A stretch of DNA of 64,000 nucleotides from contig OY970340.1 in NCBI GenBank assembly GCA_963717465.1, forward strand, positions 2,592,001-2,656,000, given 5' to 3'. How positions within the stretch are numbered: the first letter of the stretch is position 1; every line of letters begins with the position of its first letter. Below the pieces are notes generated by a model. The model made no database searches. It had not been told where the DNA came from and worked only from the letters and a program-made list of their open reading frames with translations. Shown in pieces: positions 20,142-39,366 of the stretch. This DNA is from Candidatus Bathyarchaeota archaeon. GTDB taxonomy: Archaea; Thermoproteota; Bathyarchaeia; Bathyarchaeales; Bathycorpusculaceae. The translations under genes were made by a program, and so were the position numbers.

Positions 20142-21173
20142 TCATCTGAAGCAAGTCCAAGCTAACTTAAAGCCTAATTGCTGTTTTATTTTTTCTTTTT
20201 CTTTAAAGGACATAATTTTGGGATAATTGTAGAATGGCCCGCTTGGCTTTTCGTTATAGAAGGGGCGGTTACAATTGGGACATCCTGAAGTTAAGAAAGG
20301 AACTCCAGTTTCAACTATTTTTTCTAACTGCCCTTTTTTAAGCCCGAAACTCGTTATTTTTCCTGCTTCGTCGAAGCCAAAACTTTCGCAGCGTGATGAG
20401 CCTTTAACTATCAAGAATCTAGCTAATTGCACTCGTCGGTAAGCTTCAATTTTAGGCTGAGCACTATTTTCCAGCGCTGTGCCTTTTATGGGTGTAAAAG
20501 CAAACAAGGCAGGCAAAACATTCATATCAAAACATGCCTGAATAGCTGTAACAGCGTCTTTCTCAGTTTCACCCAAACCCACAATCAAATGTGTGCTTAC
20601 GTTTCCTTTTCCCAAGAGTTTAGTCGCCATTTCTAATTGTTTAAACTGGTTTTGCCAAGTGTAACAGCCTCCAGCATCTAAACCCTTAACTTTATTGAAT
20701 AAAACCTCTGATGATGCATCTAAAGCGATTCCAAGACGGTTTACGCCTGCTTGTACAAGGAGCTGAATGTTTTTCGCAGTTTGAGGTTGGCATGAAACTG
20801 AAACTTCAATTGAAGACTTATTCTTTAATTCTTTAACTATTGCTTCAAGATGTTGGAAAACATTAGGATAATTCAGTGCTTGAATACACACACGTTTTAT
20901 TTTGCCTTGTTCAAACGCAGTTTTAATCGCAATTATCACGTTTAATGTTGGAAACGTTGGCCATGAAACTCTTGAAAGCAGTTCTGCTTTGCTTTGGCTT
21001 TTTCTGGCTTGAGGGCAAAATCCACAGTTTGCAGTACACTTGCCAGCATTATAAGTCATCAAGTATGCTGCTGTAGGTTCAGCATCAAGTTTACCCTCTG
21101 CCAAGCCTATGACAATAGCTGTCCCCGTTGAAACCCGTATTTGCAAAGGCAAACTTGTTTCTTTTTCAAGCAA
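20142..21173 (-). CDS. lipS2: radical SAM protein, archaeal lipoyl synthase subunit LipS2 type
   Basis: CTANCGFC (CxxxCxxC) plus TSGCPNCNRP, matching the TxGCPxC(N/D)RP LipS2 signature. Confidence 0.8.
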   Translation of the reverse strand: MLEKETSLPLQIRVSTGTAIVIGLAEGKLDAEPTAAYLMTYNAGKCTANCGFCPQARKSQSKAELLSRVSWPTFPTLNVIIAIKTAFEQGKIKRVCIQALNYPNVFQHLEAIVKELKNKSSIEVSVSCQPQTAKNIQLLVQAGVNRLGIALDASSEVLFNKVKGLDAGGCYTWQNQFKQLEMATKLLGKGNVSTHLIVGLGETEKDAVTAIQACFDMNVLPALFAFTPIKGTALENSAQPKIEAYRRVQLARFLIVKGSSRCESFGFDEAGKITSFGLKKGQLEKIVETGVPFLTSGCPNCNRPFYNEKPSGPFYNYPKIMSFKEKEKIKQQLGFKLAWTCFR

Positions 21174-21311
21174 TATGGTACACCGCTGGACTTATGAGAA
21201 GTGTACAAGTGGAATGTATATTAGTTTTAGGTTAAGAATGAGCGTTTTCCTATTGTTTTTGAATAAAAAAGATGATATGTGAGCACTTATAAGATAATTT
21301 TACCTACGTAA

Positions 21312-21707
21312 TTAGTATTCAACGTCTGGGAGAGCTTTTGCAAGGTCAGCCATGTGTCCTAAAGCTTTAACATTCTTCATCATCTTGGAGAACGGTCCTT
21401 CAATCTTGTATTTTCCGGTAACTGATGCCTTCTGAGCATTAATAGTACCTTGAATTACTCCAGCCCAAGTTATGTAGTCAGCCTTAAACTTGAAGTCAAC
21501 TGGCTCCTCAGCATTCCCCGGCTTAACAGAAACCTTACCATGATCCCACGTAGCAATCCAAGTCATCGGACCAGTATCTGTTGGTTTATCAGTGAAGATA
21601 TAAGCCCACTTCTCCGTCATATTCGCCTCATTCATAATCTTATCATCACTCATAGCCTTAGACCATAAATCATAATACGCTTGCGTAGCATACTTTACTT
21701 TCGCCAT
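21312..21707 (-). CDS. SCP2 sterol/acyl-chain-binding domain protein
   Basis: VDFKFKADYITW...GTINAQKASVTGKYKIEG; strong AGGAGGTGA SD. Confidence 0.8.
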   Translation of the reverse strand: MAKVKYATQAYYDLWSKAMSDDKIMNEANMTEKWAYIFTDKPTDTGPMTWIATWDHGKVSVKPGNAEEPVDFKFKADYITWAGVIQGTINAQKASVTGKYKIEGPFSKMMKNVKALGHMADLAKALPDVEY

Positions 21708-21849: not shown

Positions 21850-22836
21850 TTAGTCTTCTTTTTCGGTTTTGTCTTCTTGTGTACGTCGAGCCCACTCAGT
21901 TCTTCTATCAGTCATTAAAAAGTAGCGTGCCTCTCCTTTGGCAGCCTTGGGAATATAAGCACGCGGTAAAGTCCCAACGCCTCGTATTAGGATCAATCGA
22001 GCGGCTTCTTTGGTTCTATTACATGCCATGAGTTCAACTTCTCCGTACGGGCACCACACTTTACATAAATCACCCAGAGGACATTGAACTCTAACGCTAC
22101 CATCTTTGCGGAGAAATAGAACAGCATCAACGTCGACGGCTGAAGGAGCGCACTCGCATATTACCATTCTTGCGCACTCAAGTTTGTTGCTTTCTTGAGG
22201 AGAAATAGAAAATGGAGGATACTCTTTATGAAATCTTGTGTAGCCAATCGTTCTTGCTTTTTCAGCAGCTTCCTCTTTGGAAGTTCCAGTTGCAACTACA
22301 TGCAATGACTCCCTGTCTCTGCAAACCCAAAAAGCATCAAAACCTCGATATTTCGAGAATACAGGATACAGGTAAGCTTCTTTGTCCTTCAAGACAGGTC
22401 TTTCTTGGGTTGCTGATAACTCTTTTCCGAAAATGACCGAAAGCTTTTCTGGAGAAACGGTTTCTTTTTCTGACAAAATCGCGCTAGTTGCGGAGCCACC
22501 TTCGCCTAACACTTTTTTTAAAGCGTGTGAAAAAGTAGGCAGGGACTTGTATTCTCCCTCCATTTGGAGAAAGCCTCTGTATATCCTATGTAACCCAACA
22601 CGTGATCCACGAATTTTCACGAAAATTGCGTAAGGATCAATTTTTCGCAGCTCTTTTACGGAGTTCTCAACATCGTTTCTTTTTCCTCTTATCACTATGC
22701 CACTACAGGTTTCTCTCACGTTAACTGGCAGAGGCATTGTGGCGCCGTGGAGATAGGCAGGAGTTACCCAAGAATCGGGAGAGATAACAATCTCCATCGA
22801 TATTACATCGTCTTTGTTATCATCATTTTTACTCAT
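21850..22836 (-). CDS. methanogenesis marker protein 6 (Mmp6)-like N-terminal domain fused to a Cys-rich C-terminal extension
   Basis: VRETCSG, IFVKIRG and GFLQMEGE align by eye to Mmp6 IKETCFG, IFVKDRG and GFHQLEAE; ~200 extra residues. Confidence 0.7.
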   Translation of the reverse strand: MSKNDDNKDDVISMEIVISPDSWVTPAYLHGATMPLPVNVRETCSGIVIRGKRNDVENSVKELRKIDPYAIFVKIRGSRVGLHRIYRGFLQMEGEYKSLPTFSHALKKVLGEGGSATSAILSEKETVSPEKLSVIFGKELSATQERPVLKDKEAYLYPVFSKYRGFDAFWVCRDRESLHVVATGTSKEEAAEKARTIGYTRFHKEYPPFSISPQESNKLECARMVICECAPSAVDVDAVLFLRKDGSVRVQCPLGDLCKVWCPYGEVELMACNRTKEAARLILIRGVGTLPRAYIPKAAKGEARYFLMTDRRTEWARRTQEDKTEKED

Positions 22837-24076
22837 TGTTTTTTTCTCCTGAAGCTAATATTGCAGCGCCTACAGCACCAGCATACTGCGGAAATTTTGG
22901 AACCAAAACTTTCGCGTTTATAACGTTTTCAAATGCTGCAACTAAACCCTTGTTCAAAGAAGCCCCTCCAGTTACAATCACCGGTTCCCGCAAATCTATT
23001 TCCTGCAACTGTTGTTCGAAAAACTGTTCAGCAACACTTTGACAAGCTGCTGCTGCTACATCCTCTCTTCGTATGCCTGAAGCCAAAGCACCAGCGATAT
23101 CCTGCATTCCAAAAACAATGCAATAAGCATTCATAACAACACTCTTTGGATCGCCTTGTAATGCTAAATCACCCAGACTGTTAATATCAACGCCGATTCG
23201 GTTGGCAGCAACTTCCAAGAACCTGCCCGAGCCTCCTGCACATATGCTTCCGACCGTGAAACAATCAGGAACACCATTGTGAATAGACATGGCTTTGCTA
23301 TCTGTACCTCCTATGTCAATTATAGTAGCGTACCCATCCTGTTTATTAGCGAGAAAAGAGGCTCCTTTCGCACTTACTGTAATTTCTTCCAACGCAACAT
23401 TGGCATTAAACACTTTGCCCAAAATTTCCCGGCCATAACCAGTGACGCCCACTGCATCCAACTGGTTCATTTTCAGTGATGCTTTCTTAAGGGCTTCTTC
23501 AGCTGCTTTACGACCAGTTTCTAATATATCAGTTGTGGGAAGCCACGCTAAGCTGACTATTTGCCCGTCTTTCATAACTGCGGCCTTAGTCATGGTTGAA
23601 CCGGAGTCTACGCCTAAGGTAATGCCAACTTGTTTCTGCGTTGATAGGAGTTTTCTTTGATTAACTAAATTAGCGAGCGCTTCCATTCTGAGAAGCAAGT
23701 TTCGCTTCATGGTTCGCTCAGTGAATGAATAAACCATGACTGGGATATCGAGTTTGGATTGAAGGTACTTCCTAATTATATGCTTTACAAGGGCTCCTTC
23801 ACCGCAACGGAAACAGGTTAAAATCATTGCTGCATCAACCCAGAAACCGGCTGAATCAGGTCTTTTTTCAACAAGAGATAGAGCTTGGCCAAGCATAACT
23901 TTCAATGCATTGCTGGCGGGAACAAAACCTAACTGTTCTTCTGCACGTTTTATCTCTCCAGTAGTGGTTTCTGGAATGGAAATATCAGCATTAGCGGTTG
24001 CTGCTGCCTTATCAACTTCATTTTGGATGCCGCTCCATTCGGTGCCGCATGAAATCTGTGCAATTTTGATGGTCAC
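22829..24076 (-). CDS. methanogenesis marker protein 15 (Mmp15)-like ASKHA ATPase / CoA-dehydratase activator
   Basis: KIAQISCGTEWSG, CFRC, YSFTERT, RMEAL, GVDSGSTMTK, TGYGR, DIGG, CAGGSGRF, YCIVFG. Confidence 0.88.
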   Translation of the reverse strand: MTIKIAQISCGTEWSGIQNEVDKAAATANADISIPETTTGEIKRAEEQLGFVPASNALKVMLGQALSLVEKRPDSAGFWVDAAMILTCFRCGEGALVKHIIRKYLQSKLDIPVMVYSFTERTMKRNLLLRMEALANLVNQRKLLSTQKQVGITLGVDSGSTMTKAAVMKDGQIVSLAWLPTTDILETGRKAAEEALKKASLKMNQLDAVGVTGYGREILGKVFNANVALEEITVSAKGASFLANKQDGYATIIDIGGTDSKAMSIHNGVPDCFTVGSICAGGSGRFLEVAANRIGVDINSLGDLALQGDPKSVVMNAYCIVFGMQDIAGALASGIRREDVAAAACQSVAEQFFEQQLQEIDLREPVIVTGGASLNKGLVAAFENVINAKVLVPKFPQYAGAVGAAILASGEKNNE

Positions 24077-24522
24077 TGCTTCAACTCCTTTTCAGGCTGT
24101 TTAAGGAAGTTAACTACTTTTTGAACAAAAACCACTGCTTCCTCTTCATTGCGTGGATAACTTAGCGAAAGAATCGGAATATCTCGCTGTCTAACCATGT
24201 ATTTCGCGAATTCATTTGCTCTAGCACAACCTGAACTGCCAAAGGCTATTTCAGAATTTTCCACAAGAATTGCAACATCAGCCTGCTGCACCAAGGGCGC
24301 CAGCACATTTATTCTTCCTCTGACCCCGGATGGGACATCAACCGAACAATATTTTAGAGCTTCTCGCGGCTCTTTGTAAGTTATGCCGTATGGTGGCGAA
24401 TCAAAAGTGGCAATTTTTGCACGTTTACTAATTTCTTCCATTATAGCTAAAGGCTCATGACCAAGCCTTTTCACCATATCATACAAAACCAGACTATTGT
24501 ACGGGAAAATGAAGACCTTCAA
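24073..24522 (-). CDS. methanogenesis marker protein 5 (Mmp5)-like protein
   Basis: KVFIFPYNSL, GHEPL, DSPP, VPSGVRGR, GCARANE. Confidence 0.85.
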   Translation of the reverse strand: MKVFIFPYNSLVLYDMVKRLGHEPLAIMEEISKRAKIATFDSPPYGITYKEPREALKYCSVDVPSGVRGRINVLAPLVQQADVAILVENSEIAFGSSGCARANEFAKYMVRQRDIPILSLSYPRNEEEAVVFVQKVVNFLKQPEKELKQ

Positions 24523-24804
24523 ACACCTGACCTCTAGTTAACGTCTCAAAAGCTCATTAAAGATTATTTCGGTATTTTCATGTATTTCCTTATCGTAAAA
24601 GTTTCTAGATGATTTAGACAAAAATGGACCTGATAAGTTTTTACAGTGGATTCATTAAGGAAACTTAAATAACGATTGTTTACTTGCAAAAACTTGCATA
24701 TTACACTATTGTTTAGTTTTGACGGAAAGTTATAAATTGTTAAGATGCTATTAGGAGTAAATATATAGTATTTGAGCTATTGATGTAAAAAAGAGGATAG
24801 GAAA

Positions 24805-25552
24805 TTGAGCACTCACGCAGAAGATTTGAAGCTTCGGTTAATGACGATTGAACTTTTAAGAACTGCCAAGTATAAACGTAATATTACTTATCGAGAATTA
24901 GCTTCCAAAACAGGTTTACCAGTCACCGTTTTAAGCCGATACGCAAAAGGACACGTTTTACCCAACACCACACGCGCAAGACAACTTGGACGGATTCTTA
25001 CTAAACTAGTGGGTTTAGAAGCAGAGTTGCGGAGCAGAATAAAATTTGATGACACAGGATATTTCGATAACACTGAAATAGTGGGTGACTACAACATCCT
25101 TCAGCAAGCAGCAAATCATGCTCTTGCCAATTTTGCTGGAAAAAGAGTAACAAAAGTATTAACTGCCGCCGTAGATGGCATTCCGTTAGCCACCATGGTT
25201 GCTAACTCATTAGGAGTTAATCTTAATCGTCGCAAAAAGAAACAAGGAAGTAGGCGTTAAAGCCTTCCTTGAAGAAACATACATTCTAGGAAGAGATTCC
25301 GGAGTAACAGTGACACTTTACATTCCAAAAGAAGCAATAAAAAAACGTGACAGCGTTCTCGTAGTAGACGACATGATTAAAAGCGGAGAAACCCAGGAAG
25401 CACTAGTTAACCTCGTTAAAAAATCGAAGGCTGAGATTTCAGGCGTTTTCTCGCTCATCGCCGTCGGTGAGGAATGGAAGAAACGACTCAAATTCGGCGA
25501 CGACGCTCCAGTTGAAGTAGTCACTTACCTCAAATCACCAATCGACAACTAA
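24805..25552 (+). CDS. HTH-phosphoribosyltransferase fusion protein (archaeal Apt/PurR-like), frameshift near 25225
   Basis: TYRELASKTGLPVTVLSRY HTH; AVDGIPLA; VLVVDDMIKSGET PRPP loop. Confidence 0.8.
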
Positions 25553-25599: not shown

Positions 25600-26599
25600 T
25601 TGAGAACTATAGAGTGGAAAAATGGAACAGTTATAACCATTGACCAAACAAAACTGCCCAATGAAACAGTAACTTTAAAAATCAAAACAGTTGAAGAAAT
25701 GGCTGAAGCAATAAAAACTCTGCGCATCCGTGGTGCTCCATTGCTGGGGGCAGCAGCTGCATTCGGTGTTGCGTTGGCGGCTTACAATTCAAAAACACAA
25801 AATAAAGAAGAATTGCTAGCTGAATTAGAGGACGCTGGTGCAGTAATTAAGCGCCAAAGACCAACAGCTGTAAACCTTTTTTGGGGTGTTGATCGCGTCT
25901 TTAAAAAAGCACACGAATTTTCAGGAAGCACGGATGAATTAAGAGCATTGGTTATTGCTGAAGCACAAAAGATTCTTGAGGAAGATGCAGAACAGAACCG
26001 TGCAATCGGTCGAAACGGTGCAGTACTTATTAAAGATGGTGATACAATTTTAACTCATTGCAATGCGGGCGAACTGGCAACTGTTGAATATGGCACTGCG
26101 TTGGGAGTTATTACGGGCTGCTTGGGAACAAGGCAAAAAAATCAAGGTTATTGCTGATGAAACTCGGCCGCTACTGCAAGGTGCAAGGCTAACAACTTAT
26201 GAGCTTAAACGTGCAGGTATACCTGTGACTTTGATTACTGATAACATGGCTGGCTTTATCATGCAAAAAGGGCTTGTTGACAAGGTTATTGTTGGCGCAG
26301 ACCGGATTGTTCAGGATGCTGTTATTAATAAAATTGGTACTTTTTCAGTTGCCGTGTTAGCGCATGAACATAAATTGCCTTTTTATGTTGCGGCGCCAAA
26401 ATCCACGTTTGACTTAGCCCATAAGGCTGCTGATGTTACAATAGAAGAGCGAAAACCTGAAGAAGTTACACACATTGGTAATCAAAGGATCGCTACAGAA
26501 GGCGTAGCAGTTTATAATCCTGCTTTTGATATAACACCGTTGAAATATGTCTCGGCAATTATCTGTGAAAGTCAGAGTCTATTACCAAAAAGATTTTAG
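25600..26599 (+). CDS. mtnA: S-methyl-5-thioribose-1-phosphate isomerase, frameshift near 26115
   Basis: [37 protein letters not shown]. Confidence 0.9.
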
Positions 26600-30514: not shown

Positions 30515-31880
30515 TTAGAGCCGTGCGATGTATCTTTTGACTTCCCACTCGGTTACTTGAGTTTTGTATAGGTCCCATTCTCTGCGTTTCTCAATTAAGA
30601 AGTTTTCGAATGCAGTTGGGCCTAAGGTTTCACGCATTAGATCGCTTGTTTCCAGTTCATCCAAAGCTTCTTTAAGCGACTCTGGCAGGGATATTATGCC
30701 TCGTTCTTTACGCTCCTCGTACGTCATGTGGTAAACGTTCAGTTCAACTGGGTCTCCAGGATCAGTCCTGTTTTTAATGCCGTCTAGTCCTGCTGCCAGC
30801 AGCACTGCAAACTGCAAGTAGGGGTTTCCTGCTCCGTCAGGGTTAGCGTATTTCGCATCGCGCTGCAGCTTTTCTTCCTCCAAAGTTAGGCACTCTAATG
30901 AGCGGCGACCTGTTCTTGTGCGCCCAAGCCAAGTAAACTGGTGCCTCGTAGCCGGGGACTAAACGTTTGTAGGAGTTTGGCCAAGAGTTCAAAATCGCCG
31001 TCATTTTGCGTCCATGAGCTAATTGTCCACCGATAAAGTTTCTTGCGAGGTCGGAGATGTAGCCGTCTTTTGCATTGTCAGAGAAGAAGAGGTTTTGGGT
31101 AACGTCTTTGTTCCATAGGCTTTGGTGTGTGTGCATTCCTGAACCGTTTATTCCTTGGAATGGTTTTGGCATGTGTGTTGCTAAGTAACCGTTGCGGGCT
31201 GCAACGACTTTTGTCACCATTTTCATGGTTATTGTGCGGTCAGCTGTGTCCAAGACTTCGCCGTATTTGAAGTCTATTTCGTTTTGTCCCAGCGCGACCT
31301 CGTGATGGCTAATTTCGATTTCAATTCCGAAAGGTTCTGCCATATCAGCGATTTCTCTACGTAGATCGTCGGTTAAGTCGCTCGGGTGGAAATCAAAGTA
31401 GCCAGCCATATCAATCGGCGTAGGTAAACCGCCGTTTTCGGCTTCTTTAACTATGAAGAATTCAAGTTCTGGTGCGCATACGTAAGTGAAGCCTGCTTTG
31501 TTGGCTTTTTCGACGGCTCTTTCAAGTATGTATCTTGGATCTCCTTCGAAACGTTTGTTTTGTGGAGTATATATGTCACATAGTAATCGGCAAGAAGATT
31601 TTTCTTTTGGCCTCCAAGGCAATACGGCGAATGTTGTCGGGTCTGGATAAAGAACCATATCCGATTCTTCGATTGGCCTGTAACCGGTTATGGATGAACC
31701 ATCAAAGGATTGCCCGTGTTCAAAGATGCCTTCGATGTTTTTTGAACTGACGGCCAAGTTTTTTAGCATCCCGTTAATGTCGGTAAATTGCAGTCTAACA
31801 AATTTCAAGTCTTGTTCCTGTATCTGTTGAACAACTTTTGTAACGTTCGCCTTCCAAGTTGAATCCTTGAAGTTTCTCAT
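30515..31880 (-). CDS. glnA: type I glutamine synthetase, frameshift near 30845
   Basis: FDGSSI, PELEFF, HHEVA, GINGSGMH, YKRLVPGYEAP, NPYL. Confidence 0.95.
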
Positions 31881-35714: not shown

Positions 35715-38700
35715 TTGGGTTCTTCTGAGGATAAAAGCACGTTCGAGTTTCCGATTGTAGGAATTGGTGCTTCTGCAGGCGGCTTAGATCCAATCAGAAA
35801 ACTGCTTGAGGACTTGCCCGTTGACACAGGCATGGCGTTTGTAGTTATTCAGCATTTAGCTGCCGGACAGGAAAGTATGCTTCCTGAAATCCTCTCACGG
35901 TCCACCGAAATGAGAGTTCTTCAAGTCAAAGACGGCATGAAGGTTGAAAAAAATCAAGTTTATGTAATAACTCCCGGAACCACGATGACGTTGCAAAAGG
36001 AATATCTTAGAGTTATTCCAAAAGGAATAGCGCTCAAACCGATCAACGATTTTATGGTTTCCTTAGCCTTGGAGCGAAAAGCCCAAGCAATCGGAATTGT
36101 GTTATCAGGAACAGGTAATGATGGAACTGAAGGGTTGAAAGCAATTAAATCTGAAGGTGGCATAACATTTGTACAGGACCCAGAAACTGCCCAATACGCT
36201 GATATGCCTCGCAATGCAATAGAAGCCCAAATTGCATATTTTATTCTTTCACCAGAAAACATCGTGAAAGATCTAGTGAGAATCGCCAAGAACCCTCAAA
36301 TTCGTTTTGAAACAGAAGCTCCTGAGCTAAATAAAACTGAAAGTTCACTGAAGAAAATTCTCACAATGCTTAATGTCTCATTCGGCATTGATTTTACTCA
36401 CTATAAGGCAACTACCATAAACAGACGTTTGGCACGGCGTATGGTGATTAACAAGATTGAAACAGACAAGGAATATATTGCGTTTCTGCGATCGCATCCC
36501 AAAGAACTAGACGAGTTGTTTGATGACTTGCTTATAGGTGTTACAAGTTTCTTTAGAGAATCCCAAACATTTGAAGTTTTAAAGAAAAAAGTGTTTCCCG
36601 AGCTAGTCAAAAACAGATCAGTTAATGACTCAATACGTATCTGGGTTCCTGGATGTTCCACAGGTGAAGAAGTATATTCTCTTGCGATAGCAATACTGGA
36701 ATTTCTTGAAGAAAAATCCATTACAAGTCTGCGGGTTCAGATTTTTGGCACTGATGCAAATGAAAAAAATATTGACAAAGCGCGACATGGGCTGTATCCA
36801 AAGACAATAGATGAACAGGTTGCTCAAGACAGGCTTAAAAGGTTCTTTGAAGTACAAAATGGAAATTACCAAATATCTAAACTCATCAGGGATATGTGTA
36901 TATTCGCAAAGCAGGATATAACCAATGATCCACCTTTCTCTAACTTAGACCTCATAATGTGCCGGAACGTTCTCATCTATTTTGATTCACTTCTCCATGA
37001 AAAGATGTTCCCAATCTTTCATTATGGGCTAAAAAACAACGGTTTTCTTGTTATCGGCGAATCCGAAAGCATTGGAAAATACAATTATTTGTTTGAACAA
37101 ATTACGTCTAAAGGCTTAATTTTCAAGAAGAAACATGCTCAACCCCAAGTCTTTTTACGTCCAGATACATTTGTTCCATACTCTCCCGCTAAGAAGGCTA
37201 AACAGCTTGAAAAACCCAATGCTATGGTTTTGCTGAAAGAGGAAACCGACCGTATATTAATGGCTGAGTATGTTCCCGCATCTTTGCTAATAAATAATAA
37301 TTTGGAGATTTTATTTTTTCGTGGTCAGGTTAACCCATTTCTTGCTCACGAACCAGGAGCAGCAAGTTTGAATGCGGCAAAGCTTGTCCGAAAAGAGTTG
37401 AGAACAGATGTTCAAACCATGATTTACCGCGCGAGAAAAGAGAATAAGGCTCTTAAAGAAAAAGTACAGTTGAAACTTGAAGAACAACAAAAAAACATTA
37501 CTATTCAAGTTAAACCTTTAAAATTAGCGGATTATGAAGAGCCGTTCTTTTTGATAACCTTTGAAGAACAGCCGTTACCTCGCATGCTTTCAGGTAAAGA
37601 AGCCAAATATCCTACACCTGCTAAAAATGAAACTGCCAAAGATAAACAGATTCAAGAGCTTAGAGAGGATTTGGAGTCAACTAAGCAGTCTTTGCAAACT
37701 ATTATTGAAGCGCAAGAGGCAACCAACGAAGAGTTGCGGTCAACAATGGAAGAATCGCAATCTAGCAATGAAGAATTGCAGAGCACTAACGAGGAGTTGG
37801 AAACGGCAAAGGAGGAGCTGCAGTCAAGTAATGAGGAATTGCAGACGCTTAATGAAGAGCTCAATAACCGAAATTTAACTCTTGGCCGCTTGAATGATGA
37901 TTTAACTAATCTGCAAACAAATATCGATCTTCCAGTGGTTATTGTCGATAGAGACTTGAGAATTAGGCGCTTTACAAGCTCGGCTCAAGAGCTTTTCAAG
38001 ATTTCGCCATCTGATGTTGGGCGTTCAATTATCACCATTAATTCAGTAGTTTATAATGCAAATTTAGAAAAGATAATAGCGGATGTGATTTCCAAACTTT
38101 CGCCGGTCAACCTGAGAAGTTACCTGTGCTGGCGACCGTTTATTTGAAATGAGGGTTCGACCGTACTTATCCAACGAAAAAAAAATTGATGGCGCAGTCT
38201 TAACCTTCTCAGACATTACCGAACGCAAGAAAGCTGAATTGATGCTTGAAGAGTACAAGATTAGCTTAGAGAAGCTTGTTGAAGAGCGAACAAAGAAACT
38301 TGAAATCATCGCGTTATATGCTCGAAATTTAATTGAAGCAAGTCTTGACCCTTTGGTAACTATTAGCGTTGAAGGTAAAATTACTGACGTTAACAAATCC
38401 ACAGAGATGGTCACTGGCTGCCAAAGAAAAGAATTAATTGGCAGCGACTTCTCGAATTACTTTACTGACCAAGAAAAAGCAACGAGCGGATACAAGCAAG
38501 TCTTAACCAAAGGCTTTGTGAAAGATTACCCCTTGGTAATTAAACATAAATCTGGAAAAACTACTGAAGTATTGTACAATGCCACCGTTTACACGAATAA
38601 TGCGGGCGAAATACAAGGCGTTTTTGCGGCGGCAAGAGACATTACTGAGCTTAGAAAGGCAGAAAAAGAGGCTCAGGAAGCAGCAAAGAAACTAAAAGAT

Positions 38701-39366
38701 TCTGAGCGTTTAGCAACTATAGGTATTACAGCTGGTATGGTAGGTCATGATATTCGTAACCCATTGCAGGCTATAAGTGGCGATGTATATTTGGCGAAAA
38801 CCGAGTTGGCTTCAACGCCTGAGAGCGAAGCTAAAAAGACCGCATTGGAAAGTTTGGATGAGATTGAAAAGAGCATTTCTTATATTAATAAGATCATAGT
38901 TGATCTGCAAGATTTCGCTAAGCCGTTAGCTCCAAAACTTGAGGAAATTGATCTTGAACAAACAGTTCACTTGGTCTTAGCTACACTGGATATGCCTGAA
39001 AAAATAGACTTTTCGCTGGCTATCAGCGAGGGTTTTCCAAAACTTAAAACTGATCCAACATACATCCGAAGAATACTGACAAATTTATCCAACAATGCCA
39101 TTCAAGCAATGCCAAAAGGAGGCAAACTTGCAATAACTGCGGCTATCATAAGTGGCAAAGCCGTTATTACTGTTGAAGATACAGGTGAGGGCATAGCTGA
39201 AAGCGTCAGAAGCAAAATATTCACACCACTAGAGACGACAAAAGCCAAAGGTCAAGGCTTTGGCTTAGCCGTGGTTAAAAGGTTTACAGAAGCATTGGGT
39301 GGAACAGTCAGGTTTGAAAGTGAGGTTGGAAAAGGAACTAAATTTATTGTCGAATTTACTGTCTAA
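35715..39366 (+). CDS. CheB methylesterase - CheR methyltransferase - coiled coil - PAS - histidine kinase fusion, frame break near 38110-38148
   Basis: GASAGG/IQHL/GNDG (CheB), GCSTGEE and CRNVLIYF (CheR), SSNEELQ repeats, PAS, HDIRNPL, DTGEG, GFGL. Confidence 0.88.

Follow-up and report, generated by a model that had tools for sequence, protein, structure and literature searches.

The genes closest to the locus described here belong to the canonical activation cluster of methyl-coenzyme M reductase (MCR), designated m4–m9 (Mmp3, 6, 5, 15, 17 and 7), in which Mmp5, Mmp6 and Mmp15 (TIGR03271, TIGR03272 and TIGR03286) correspond to the Borrel markers m6, m5 and m7. The Borrel markers m15–m17, reported from non-methanogens, are other proteins, namely MtxX, an AIR-synthase-like protein and a Zn-ribbon protein. 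In the accessible text of the relevant studies, component A2, Mmp3, Mmp7 and Mmp17 co-purify with McrC (PMC9584954), additional Mmp proteins clustered with nifB are presumed to be required in vivo for physiological activation (PMC12176620) and Mmp15 is suggested to join the complex transiently as an ATPase (bioRxiv 10.64898/2026.03.18.712670). The same preprint reports, in its available part, that attempts to delete mmp genes from M. acetivorans led to wild-type or mixed populations only. The main text of PMC12176620 mentions neither Mmp5 nor Mmp6 nor Mmp15 by name. Two AtwA homologues have been described, and the accessible text on them does not mention a paralogous m5–m7 set. Here, we analyzed a three-gene locus, Mmp5–Mmp15–Mmp6-like (the trio), at positions 21,850 to 24,522 of a 64,000-nucleotide stretch of a Candidatus Bathyarchaeota genome (the window; GenBank assembly GCA_963717465.1, contig OY970340.1, positions 2,592,001 to 2,656,000 of the forward strand). 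The trio is a second, old paralogous set, neither an ordinary split of the canonical cluster nor what is left of a lost system, and it belongs to a trio type that is conserved, monophyletic and under purifying selection. The Mmp5/Mmp15/Mmp6 module was already known; new here is a distinct, conserved, Cys-tailed paralogue. No description of this Cys-tailed subfamily was found in the literature searched, and supplements and figures may also bear on this.

An operon of Mmp5, Mmp15 and an Mmp6-like protein

The list of open reading frames (ORFs) gave three overlapping minus-strand genes with exactly the coordinates proposed in a preceding sequence-only reading of the window. The features of the locus are as follows, with protein lengths and positions in amino acids (aa):

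24073..24522, minus strand: Mmp5-type gene (DUF2112), 149 aa, TTG start, operon gene 1; FGSSGC at the position of the canonical CxxC
22829..24076, minus strand: Mmp15-type gene, 415 aa, GTG start; N-domain plus HgdC/BcrAD-type ATPase
21850..22836, minus strand: Mmp6-like gene, 328 aa, ATG start, operon gene 3
23627-24076, minus strand: Mmp15 N-terminal domain, aa 1-150; invariant Cys10, Cys88 and Cys91
22847-23623, minus strand: Mmp15 HgdC/BcrAD-type ATPase, aa 152-410; Cys279 and Cys319
22519..22791, minus strand: DUF2102 (Mmp6) N-terminal domain of the third gene, aa 16-106; ferredoxin-like beta-alpha-beta-beta-alpha-beta fold
22222..22389, minus strand: middle domain of the third gene, aa about 150-205, FWVCRD...GY
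22021..22191, minus strand: four-cysteine tail of the third gene, aa 216-272; Cys227, Cys252, Cys258 and Cys262; ...VRCP...C...CPYG
24523..24600, minus strand: upstream region, putative promoter read from the sequence; GAGGT and an A/T-rich TTTAAT ~40 nt before the start

The Mmp5 stop and Mmp15 start overlap in GTGA, and the Mmp15 stop and third-gene start overlap by 8 bp in ATGAGTAA, both as previously read from the sequence; together, the genes make up one operon with translational coupling. The ribosome-binding-like GAGGT lies 8–10 nt ahead of the Mmp5 start. The promoter scan model was of the bacterial type and is not informative for archaea.

Profile scans placed the first two proteins firmly in their families. 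Mmp5 passed TIGR03271 in the NCBIfam scan (184.8 bits, cut-off 140.25, profile positions 1–141 of 142) and Pfam DUF2112 (181.1 bits), while Mmp15 passed TIGR03286 (547 bits, cut-off 455.75, profile positions 1–403 of 404; NCBIfam), its ATPase half matching PF01869 (BcrAD_BadFG; 198.9 bits) and TIGR00241 (280.2 bits, cut-off 125.4). The third gene failed TIGR03272, reaching 54 bits against a cut-off of 125.95 over residues 33–134 of 328 only, but passed Pfam DUF2102 (56.4 bits, cut-off 25) and was, therefore, named Mmp6-like. Its product is ~190 aa longer than Mmp6, with the extra residues at the C terminus. The sequence-only reading had called the genes Mmp5, Mmp15 and Mmp6; the first two names stand above the NCBIfam cut-offs, whereas the third holds for the DUF2102 domain and not at the level of the Mmp6 cut-off. 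The gene order 5-15-6 in place of 6-5-15, also pointed out there, was borne out by the ORF list.

The host carries a complete canonical MCR system

The trio had been described as an orphan operon outside an MCR context. This is correct within the window, where Mcr, A2, Mmp3, Mmp7 and Mmp17 were not seen among the annotated ORFs (10–42 kb), but not genome-wide. The window lies on a single 3.05-Mb contig, and a full mcr/A2/Mmp set is encoded ~930 kb from the trio. There, mcrB, mcrD, mcrC, mcrG and mcrA (with mcrB, mcrC and mcrA each interrupted by frame breaks) are accompanied by a canonical minus-strand cluster of Mmp3, Mmp6, Mmp5, Mmp15, Mmp17, a NifB-like radical SAM gene, Mmp7 and Mmp8, to which component A2 (761–762 bits, above cut-off) is divergent.

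According to the sequence-only reading, a complete mcr/A2/Mmp3/7/17 set elsewhere in the genome would have made the trio an ordinary split cluster. The set is present, yet the consequence does not follow: the canonical cluster has the usual 6-5-15 order with its own Mmp5, Mmp6 and Mmp15, and the window trio is, therefore, a second paralogous set. Canonical Mmp6 (159 aa, 150.7 bits), Mmp5 (153 aa) and Mmp15 share only part of their sequence with the window copies, with identities of 50% for Mmp5, 56% for Mmp15 and 38% for the third gene (aa 16–109 only). The window Mmp15 scores lower against TIGR03286 than the host's canonical Mmp15 (547 versus 654.9 bits), and the host genome encodes the C-terminal part of the third protein only once.

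Several features of the canonical region were recorded alongside. The mcrBDCGA operon (G000:C1:1660046-1665079; L012:5047-10079) is interrupted by four frame breaks (two in mcrA and one each in mcrB and mcrC), and those in mcrB and mcrC lie outside long homopolymers. The operon is only weakly enriched in breaks (2 observed against 0.48 expected; P about 0.08 by a genome-wide proxy); they are probably assembly errors, with real MCR decay a lesser possibility. The NifB-like radical SAM gene between Mmp17 and Mmp7 (G000:C1:1672111-1673091, minus strand; L012:17112-18092) reaches 317 bits against TIGR01290 (cut-off 343.65). The same placement occurs in the metagenome loci L047, L048 and L050 and is in line with the NifB-type clusters that the MCR activation complex is reported to require. 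A few kilobases upstream of the mcr operon lies a gene for an AcsV-like corrinoid activation/regeneration protein (L012:443-2359; G000:C1:1655442-1657358; 478.9 bits, cut-off 800), another ATP-dependent reductive activase near mcr.

The trio type is a separate and conserved lineage

Two Mmp15 trees were used to place the window copy. The first comprised 69 rows, drawn from the first 61 of 120 listed matches (1,283 in all), 5 named sequences and three from genomes. Here, the window clade fell into a 17-row set that was split from the other 52 rows with an SH-aLRT support of 99, and the 52-row side held every named canonical Mmp15 together with the host's canonical copy. The second tree (54 rows) combined the window Mmp15 with 16 earlier-grouped rows, 4 fused forms and 32 canonical sequences, and a generic activase served as the outgroup. 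All 21 trio-type Mmp15s formed one clade (SH-aLRT 99.6), for which the four fused forms provide an independent test because they had been left out when the group was defined. The clade was nested among TACK-type canonical Mmp15s, and the trio type is a separate lineage that probably arose from one duplication among TACK archaea.

Gene order separates the two types as well. With the 17-row Mmp15 alignment as the query, 44 metagenome loci were retrieved and mapped with host reference proteins. Canonical context, defined by Mmp3/6 before or Mmp17/NifB/Mmp7 after Mmp15, was seen in 25/44, while 9/44 showed the order Mmp5–Mmp15–Mmp6-like. One further locus (L079), on a contig cut after the Mmp15 start, contained the trio-type Mmp5–Mmp15 only; 8/44 loci were of undetermined context and 1/44 was unusable. 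No MCR-linked genes were found within up to 10 kb of the trio loci. A fused form was present in family f67, in which four genomes encode an Mmp5–Mmp15 fusion (578–588 aa) followed by a Cys-tailed third gene of 170–172 aa. The trio type is always 5-15-6-like, or a 5-15 fusion plus a 6-like gene, and always apart from MCR genes. The window trio belongs to this type by its clade, its order 5-15-6 and its combination of DUF2102 with a four-Cys tail.

The eight loci of undetermined context (L060–L064, L066, L074 and L077) encode Mmp15 with 45–54% identity to the queries, with or without Mmp5 and with no recognizable Mmp/Mcr neighbor. These may represent a third kind of context.

The cysteines of Mmp5 and Mmp15 are distributed in a characteristic manner. 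A single CxxC has been noted for DUF2112 in the accessible text of PMC9425974. Its first Cys was absent from 10/10 distinct trio-type copies of Mmp5, while the motif was kept in 11/11 canonical-context copies and in one copy of undetermined context. In Mmp15, the nucleotide-binding motifs and C10, C88 and C91 were invariant within the clade (17 sequences).

Selection was assessed by pairwise comparison of three contigs of one lineage labelled Thaumarchaeota. Values of dN/dS were 0.03–0.07 for Mmp5, about 0.10 for Mmp15 and 0.11–0.23 for the third gene, with 0.07–0.13 for the neighboring rpS2 and mevalonate kinase. The sequence-only reading had further remarked that the trio is free of frameshifts unlike many neighbors. 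This is true but uninformative, as a proxy based on 286 candidate split pairs of ORFs in 3.05 Mb gives a probability of about 0.78 that 2.67 kb are free of breaks; the observation was, therefore, dropped as evidence for selection. By the same proxy, frame breaks occur genome-wide at about 1 per 10.7 kb, with 8 candidate split pairs across the whole window. They affect housekeeping genes too and, for these reasons, look like assembly errors.

A four-cysteine tail marks the third protein

Every complete third gene of a trio locus encodes a DUF2102 domain followed by the same four-Cys motif (...RC...VRCP...C...CPYG...), with or without the middle domain seen in the window. Outside the window clade, the middle domain occurs only in a small number of distant long forms, and forms of 170–180 aa lack it. 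In an alignment of 38 tail sequences, C227, C252, C262 and G265 were invariant and C258 was conserved in at least 90%. The spacing, C-x(24)-C-x5-C-x3-C in the window, varies among relatives. A tail hidden Markov model (HMM) run over every ORF of the host genome and all fetched loci matched 13 trio-type third genes, comprising 8/10 from metagenomes, 4/4 accompanying fused forms and that of the window. The two negative trio-type metagenome loci are cut by contig ends. There was no match in the 25 canonical loci and none elsewhere in the host genome. As a further variant, one metagenome locus (L044:3116-4222) encodes a third protein of 368 aa with two tandem DUF2102 domains before the Cys tail.

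A first AlphaFold model of the third protein, based on 6 sequences, had a mean pLDDT of 41 and was unusable. The second reached 72.5 and predicts a ferredoxin-like N-domain (pLDDT 87–94 over aa 11–70), a small beta-rich middle domain (strands 152–184 and helix 187–197, pLDDT about 90) and a compact tail. Foldseek searches with this model, in which the C-terminal parts were barely covered, returned nothing at E ≤ 0.001; VIA-align gave generic ferredoxin-like matches to residues 6–88 only (best Z 6.8), and the protein atlas held no usable match for residues 140–328. A sequence search of the PDB gave no significant match to Mmp5 or to the third protein; the only hit for the tail was a nonsignificant resemblance to HycB (E 0.55). 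The four-Cys tail is a probable metal or Fe-S site, judged from its conserved cysteines.

Distribution across archaeal genomes and metagenomes

Searches with the third protein as the query found no match in 100 other genomes of the order or in 300 of the family, 88 of which belong to the same genus. Mmp15 above the family cut-off was detected in 1/101 genomes of the order, namely the host, and in 2/401 of the class, the host and G385. Given these counts, the MCR system and trio of the host were either gained by transfer or uniquely retained. The host carries two Mmp15 copies and G385 one, in one canonical cluster. The G385 protein is about equidistant from both host copies (54.5% and 57.3%) and identical to a protein labelled Candidatus Bathyarchaeota by NCBI. 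At the level of the phylum, a sample of 401 genomes contained 41 with true Mmp15, and a second sample (n = 333) yielded only genomes already covered, with a best identity of 59%.

Relatives of the third protein are few. Five of similar length were found among 5.8 billion proteins, an exhaustive HMMER search added a handful of more distant long forms, and a family-profile search matched only 22 clusters. As locus queries, neither the third gene by itself nor its 6-sequence alignment retrieved anything from genome or metagenome contigs. The closest relatives of Mmp15 (P0051, P0052 and P0053; 86–90% identity) lie on contigs of 128,899, 7,676 and 7,294 bp, and three relatives of the third protein sit on contigs of exactly these lengths; P0109 and P0009 form another pair, both on 32,223-bp contigs. 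Homologues of the fused form are named Candidatus Nezhaarchaeota or Nezhaarchaeales by their sources. One third gene of the Nezhaarchaeota type is located on a 1,029,192-bp contig, and the canonical Mmp15 of that organism is on a contig of equal length.

A further trio lineage, with contigs of about 48% GC, was not among the genomes of either phylum sample. An assignment of trio contigs and canonical clusters of the same two metagenomes to one organism was considered and rejected on the basis of GC content (48% versus 65–67%).

Proposed function and alternative explanations

The C-terminal half of Mmp15 matches HadI, HgdC and MbdQ at 1e-31 to 1e-34 over ~255 residues, the best activator matches being HadI (1e-34) and HgdC (1.3e-32), and, in an alignment to 1HUX and 4EHT, Cys279 and Cys319 correspond to positions 127 and 166 of HgdC. 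In the HgdC structure, these positions hold the inter-subunit [4Fe-4S] cluster. A predicted complex of Mmp15, Mmp5 and the third protein scored 0.80, 0.66 and 0.68, with 0.53 for a control in which chain 1 was replaced, and speaks neither for nor against an assembly of the three. The best mechanistic reading of these sequence features would be a three-component ATP-driven generator of low-potential electrons.

With moderate confidence, we propose that the trio is an ATP-driven HgdC-type electron injector linked to MCR activation. The Mmp15 ATPase would form a dimer with a bridging [4Fe-4S] cluster on Cys279 and Cys319, as in HgdC, and receive an electron from ferredoxin or a similar donor. ATP binding and hydrolysis would then drive a very-low-potential electron into a site made up of the Mmp15 N-domain cysteines and Mmp5, with the four-Cys site of the Mmp6-like protein possibly acting as an extra relay, entry or exit. 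The most likely recipient would be the A2–McrC–Mmp3/7/17 machinery for MCR activation, for which the trio might provide an alternative or condition-specific electron-input branch. The link to MCR is favored by the membership of the module in the Mmp15 family and by the restriction of the trio, within the host's MCR-free family, to the MCR-bearing host genome. All three well-assembled carriers (G000, G781 and G787) contain mcrA and the canonical set, and G938 (72% complete) has A2, Mmp3, Mmp7 and fragments of a canonical Mmp15.

Several points weigh against this proposal. The trio never stands beside MCR genes, and its neighbors are housekeeping genes that differ by lineage, so that gene context gives no pointer to MCR. 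Most MCR-bearing genomes sampled are without the trio (32/32 in family f46, and G385), and it is, therefore, not needed for MCR activation in general. In G843 (88% complete, 240 contigs), the trio was found and mcrA, Mmp7, A2, Mmp3 and a canonical Mmp15 were not. The 48%-GC trio lineage is labelled Thaumarchaeota/Nitrososphaerota by NCBI, and the accessible part of the PMC9635834 supplement lists m4–m9 homologues from a hot-spring Thaumarchaeota single-cell genome without MCR as 'putative remnants'. The four-Cys tail lacks a ferredoxin motif, the C-terminal 193 residues match no Pfam family at E up to 10, and the cluster content suggested for all three proteins derives from cysteine patterns. 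Lastly, the trees come from quick searches and carry no branch support other than SH-aLRT, and their very long outgroup branch makes the root, and hence a duplication within TACK, uncertain.

The alternative that survives best, which we regard as possible but unlikely, is that the trio is a self-contained ATP-driven injector for a non-MCR target, for example, another low-potential metalloenzyme, and merely co-occurs with MCR. It might, tentatively, be a previously unrecognized self-sufficient injector kept by strong selection in archaea without methane metabolism. Its hosts could conceivably be the Thaumarchaeota/Nitrososphaerota-labelled lineage and perhaps G843, and its target some other hard-to-reduce metal center; its presence beside the canonical set in the host would then, somewhat doubtfully, be a mere coincidence of descent. 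This alternative is consistent with the separation from MCR genes everywhere amid lineage-variable housekeeping neighbors, with the clade distinct from canonical Mmp15 and its own extra Cys site, and with strong purifying selection on the Thaumarchaeota/Nitrososphaerota-labelled contigs. It would also suit the homologues in the MCR-less single-cell genome (PMC9635834, in the part available) and the methane-related genes 'excluding mcr' of some Aigarchaeota metagenome-assembled genomes (MAGs) in PMC6783470, the accessible text of which also reports one mcr-containing deep Thaumarchaeota MAG. Against it stand the host family, in which none of 300 MCR-free genomes and only the MCR-bearing one carries the trio, and the presence of MCR in 3/3 well-assembled carriers. 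G843, with its trio and no MCR genes found, would fit the alternative but was not accepted as an MCR-free carrier: its assembly is fragmented, a single 16-kb stretch of its congener G787 contains all the missing genes, and Mmp8 homologues are kept in G843.

Considerably less likely is an ATP-dependent assembly or chaperone system for a metal cofactor, such as an Fe-S or L-type cluster or F430, in which the Cys tail would serve as a scaffold or carrier. Canonical Mmp5/6/15 genes do stand beside a NifB-like radical SAM gene (in the host and in L047, L048 and L050), and the activation complex needs NifB-type clusters according to the accessible text of PMC12176620. Moreover, the small ferredoxin-like fold of the Mmp6 N-domain is common in ligand- and metal-binding proteins, and the four Cys are not in ferredoxin spacing. 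However, the ATPase half is closest to the electron-transferring HadI, HgdC and MbdQ, both cluster-ligand positions are kept, and NCBIfam and Pfam scans matched none of the three proteins to an assembly-factor family.

An ordinary split of the canonical MCR-activation cluster, with the same genes relocated, is highly improbable: the remaining partners are indeed elsewhere in the genome, but the canonical cluster retains its own three genes, and the window copies are 38–56% identical to these and fall into a different clade. Equally remote is a decaying relic of a lost function, the sequence-only reading's lost methane metabolism, because the many frame breaks in the assembly, including four in the mcr operon, occur genome-wide and resemble assembly errors, while the three ORFs are intact with conserved catalytic and cysteine motifs, the dN/dS of relatives is 0.03–0.23, Mmp15 of close relatives remains 86–90% identical, and the tree shows the trio type to be monophyletic.

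Genomic surroundings

Housekeeping genes make up the wider surroundings of the trio. Downstream on the same strand follow an SCP2-fold gene and then a LipS2-type lipoyl synthase (window 20142-21707, minus strand), with gaps of 142 bp from the trio to the SCP2-fold gene and 138 bp from there to LipS2. The left flank (pyrK, pyrD, HMGL, orf87 and LipS2) is kept in three congeners, in which SCP2 and the trio are absent. The trio thus lies at a synteny breakpoint, and, as the region past LipS2 varies among these genomes, no clean insertion site can be defined. No tRNA, Rfam family or meaningful flanking repeat was found near the trio, and no CoA-ester enzyme is encoded nearby. A search of sequencing runs listed one DNA run with 22% of the sampled words and no RNA run.

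Among the nearby genes, those for an HTH-phosphoribosyltransferase (24805-25552), an IF-2B/MtnA-like protein (25600-26599) and glutamine synthetase (30515-31880), all housekeeping genes, are split by frame breaks. Further away, at 35715-39366, the window encodes a CheB-CheR fusion of 810 aa that includes a PAS domain and, after it, a PAS histidine kinase; such a combined chemotaxis-type methylesterase/methyltransferase is unusual.

Implications and comparison with known systems

The role of Mmp5, Mmp6 and Mmp15 is an open question in methane biology, which the variant described here may help to answer; Mmp15 has been proposed, in the accessible text of two reports, as the missing ATPase or electron-input component (PMC12176620; bioRxiv 10.64898/2026.03.18.712670). 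The variant overturns nothing but offers natural experiments in the form of fusion, cysteine redistribution and dual sets in one host. The natural fusion of Mmp5 to Mmp15 argues for action of the pair as a single unit. The four Cys gained on Mmp6 and the one lost from Mmp5 point to the positions of metal sites and possibly to their sharing, and organisms with dual sets allow both to be compared inside one host. Should the trio also prove functional in the absence of MCR, the small set of ATP-driven 'uphill' electron-transfer systems would gain a new member that stands alone. The host itself is of interest as the only genome with MCR-system genes when compared with 300 others sampled from its family.

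RACo/AcsV and RamA combine an ASKHA-type ATPase with Fe-S-mediated uphill electron transfer. They belong to different families, there is no corrinoid protein gene beside the trio, and the resemblance is a functional analogy only. The activators of 2-hydroxyacyl-CoA dehydratase and class I benzoyl-CoA reductase, HgdC (1HUX), HadI (4EHT) and MbdQ/MbdP (9GAI), are closer. Mmp15 keeps both cluster-ligand Cys positions of HgdC but has an extra 150-aa N-domain with three invariant cysteines, and its partners are Mmp5 and the Mmp6-like protein instead of a dehydratase or reductase. The solved MCR activation complex (A2, McrC, Mmp3, Mmp7 and Mmp17 with MCR, as given in the accessible text of PMC12176620), all components of which are encoded by the host, belongs to the same physiological system as canonical Mmp5/6/15.

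The closest counterpart is the canonical Mmp5/6/15 set itself. The trio type shares with it the DUF2112, DUF2102 and N-domain plus BcrAD_BadFG families, keeps the cysteines of the Mmp15 N-domain and lies inside the Mmp15 family tree. It differs in forming a separate clade, in its order 5-15-6 and in never standing beside Mmp3, Mmp17, Mmp7, A2 or NifB. Its third protein falls below the Mmp6 cut-off and bears a four-Cys tail, while its Mmp5 is without the first Cys of CxxC. In the host, the trio comes on top of the canonical set.

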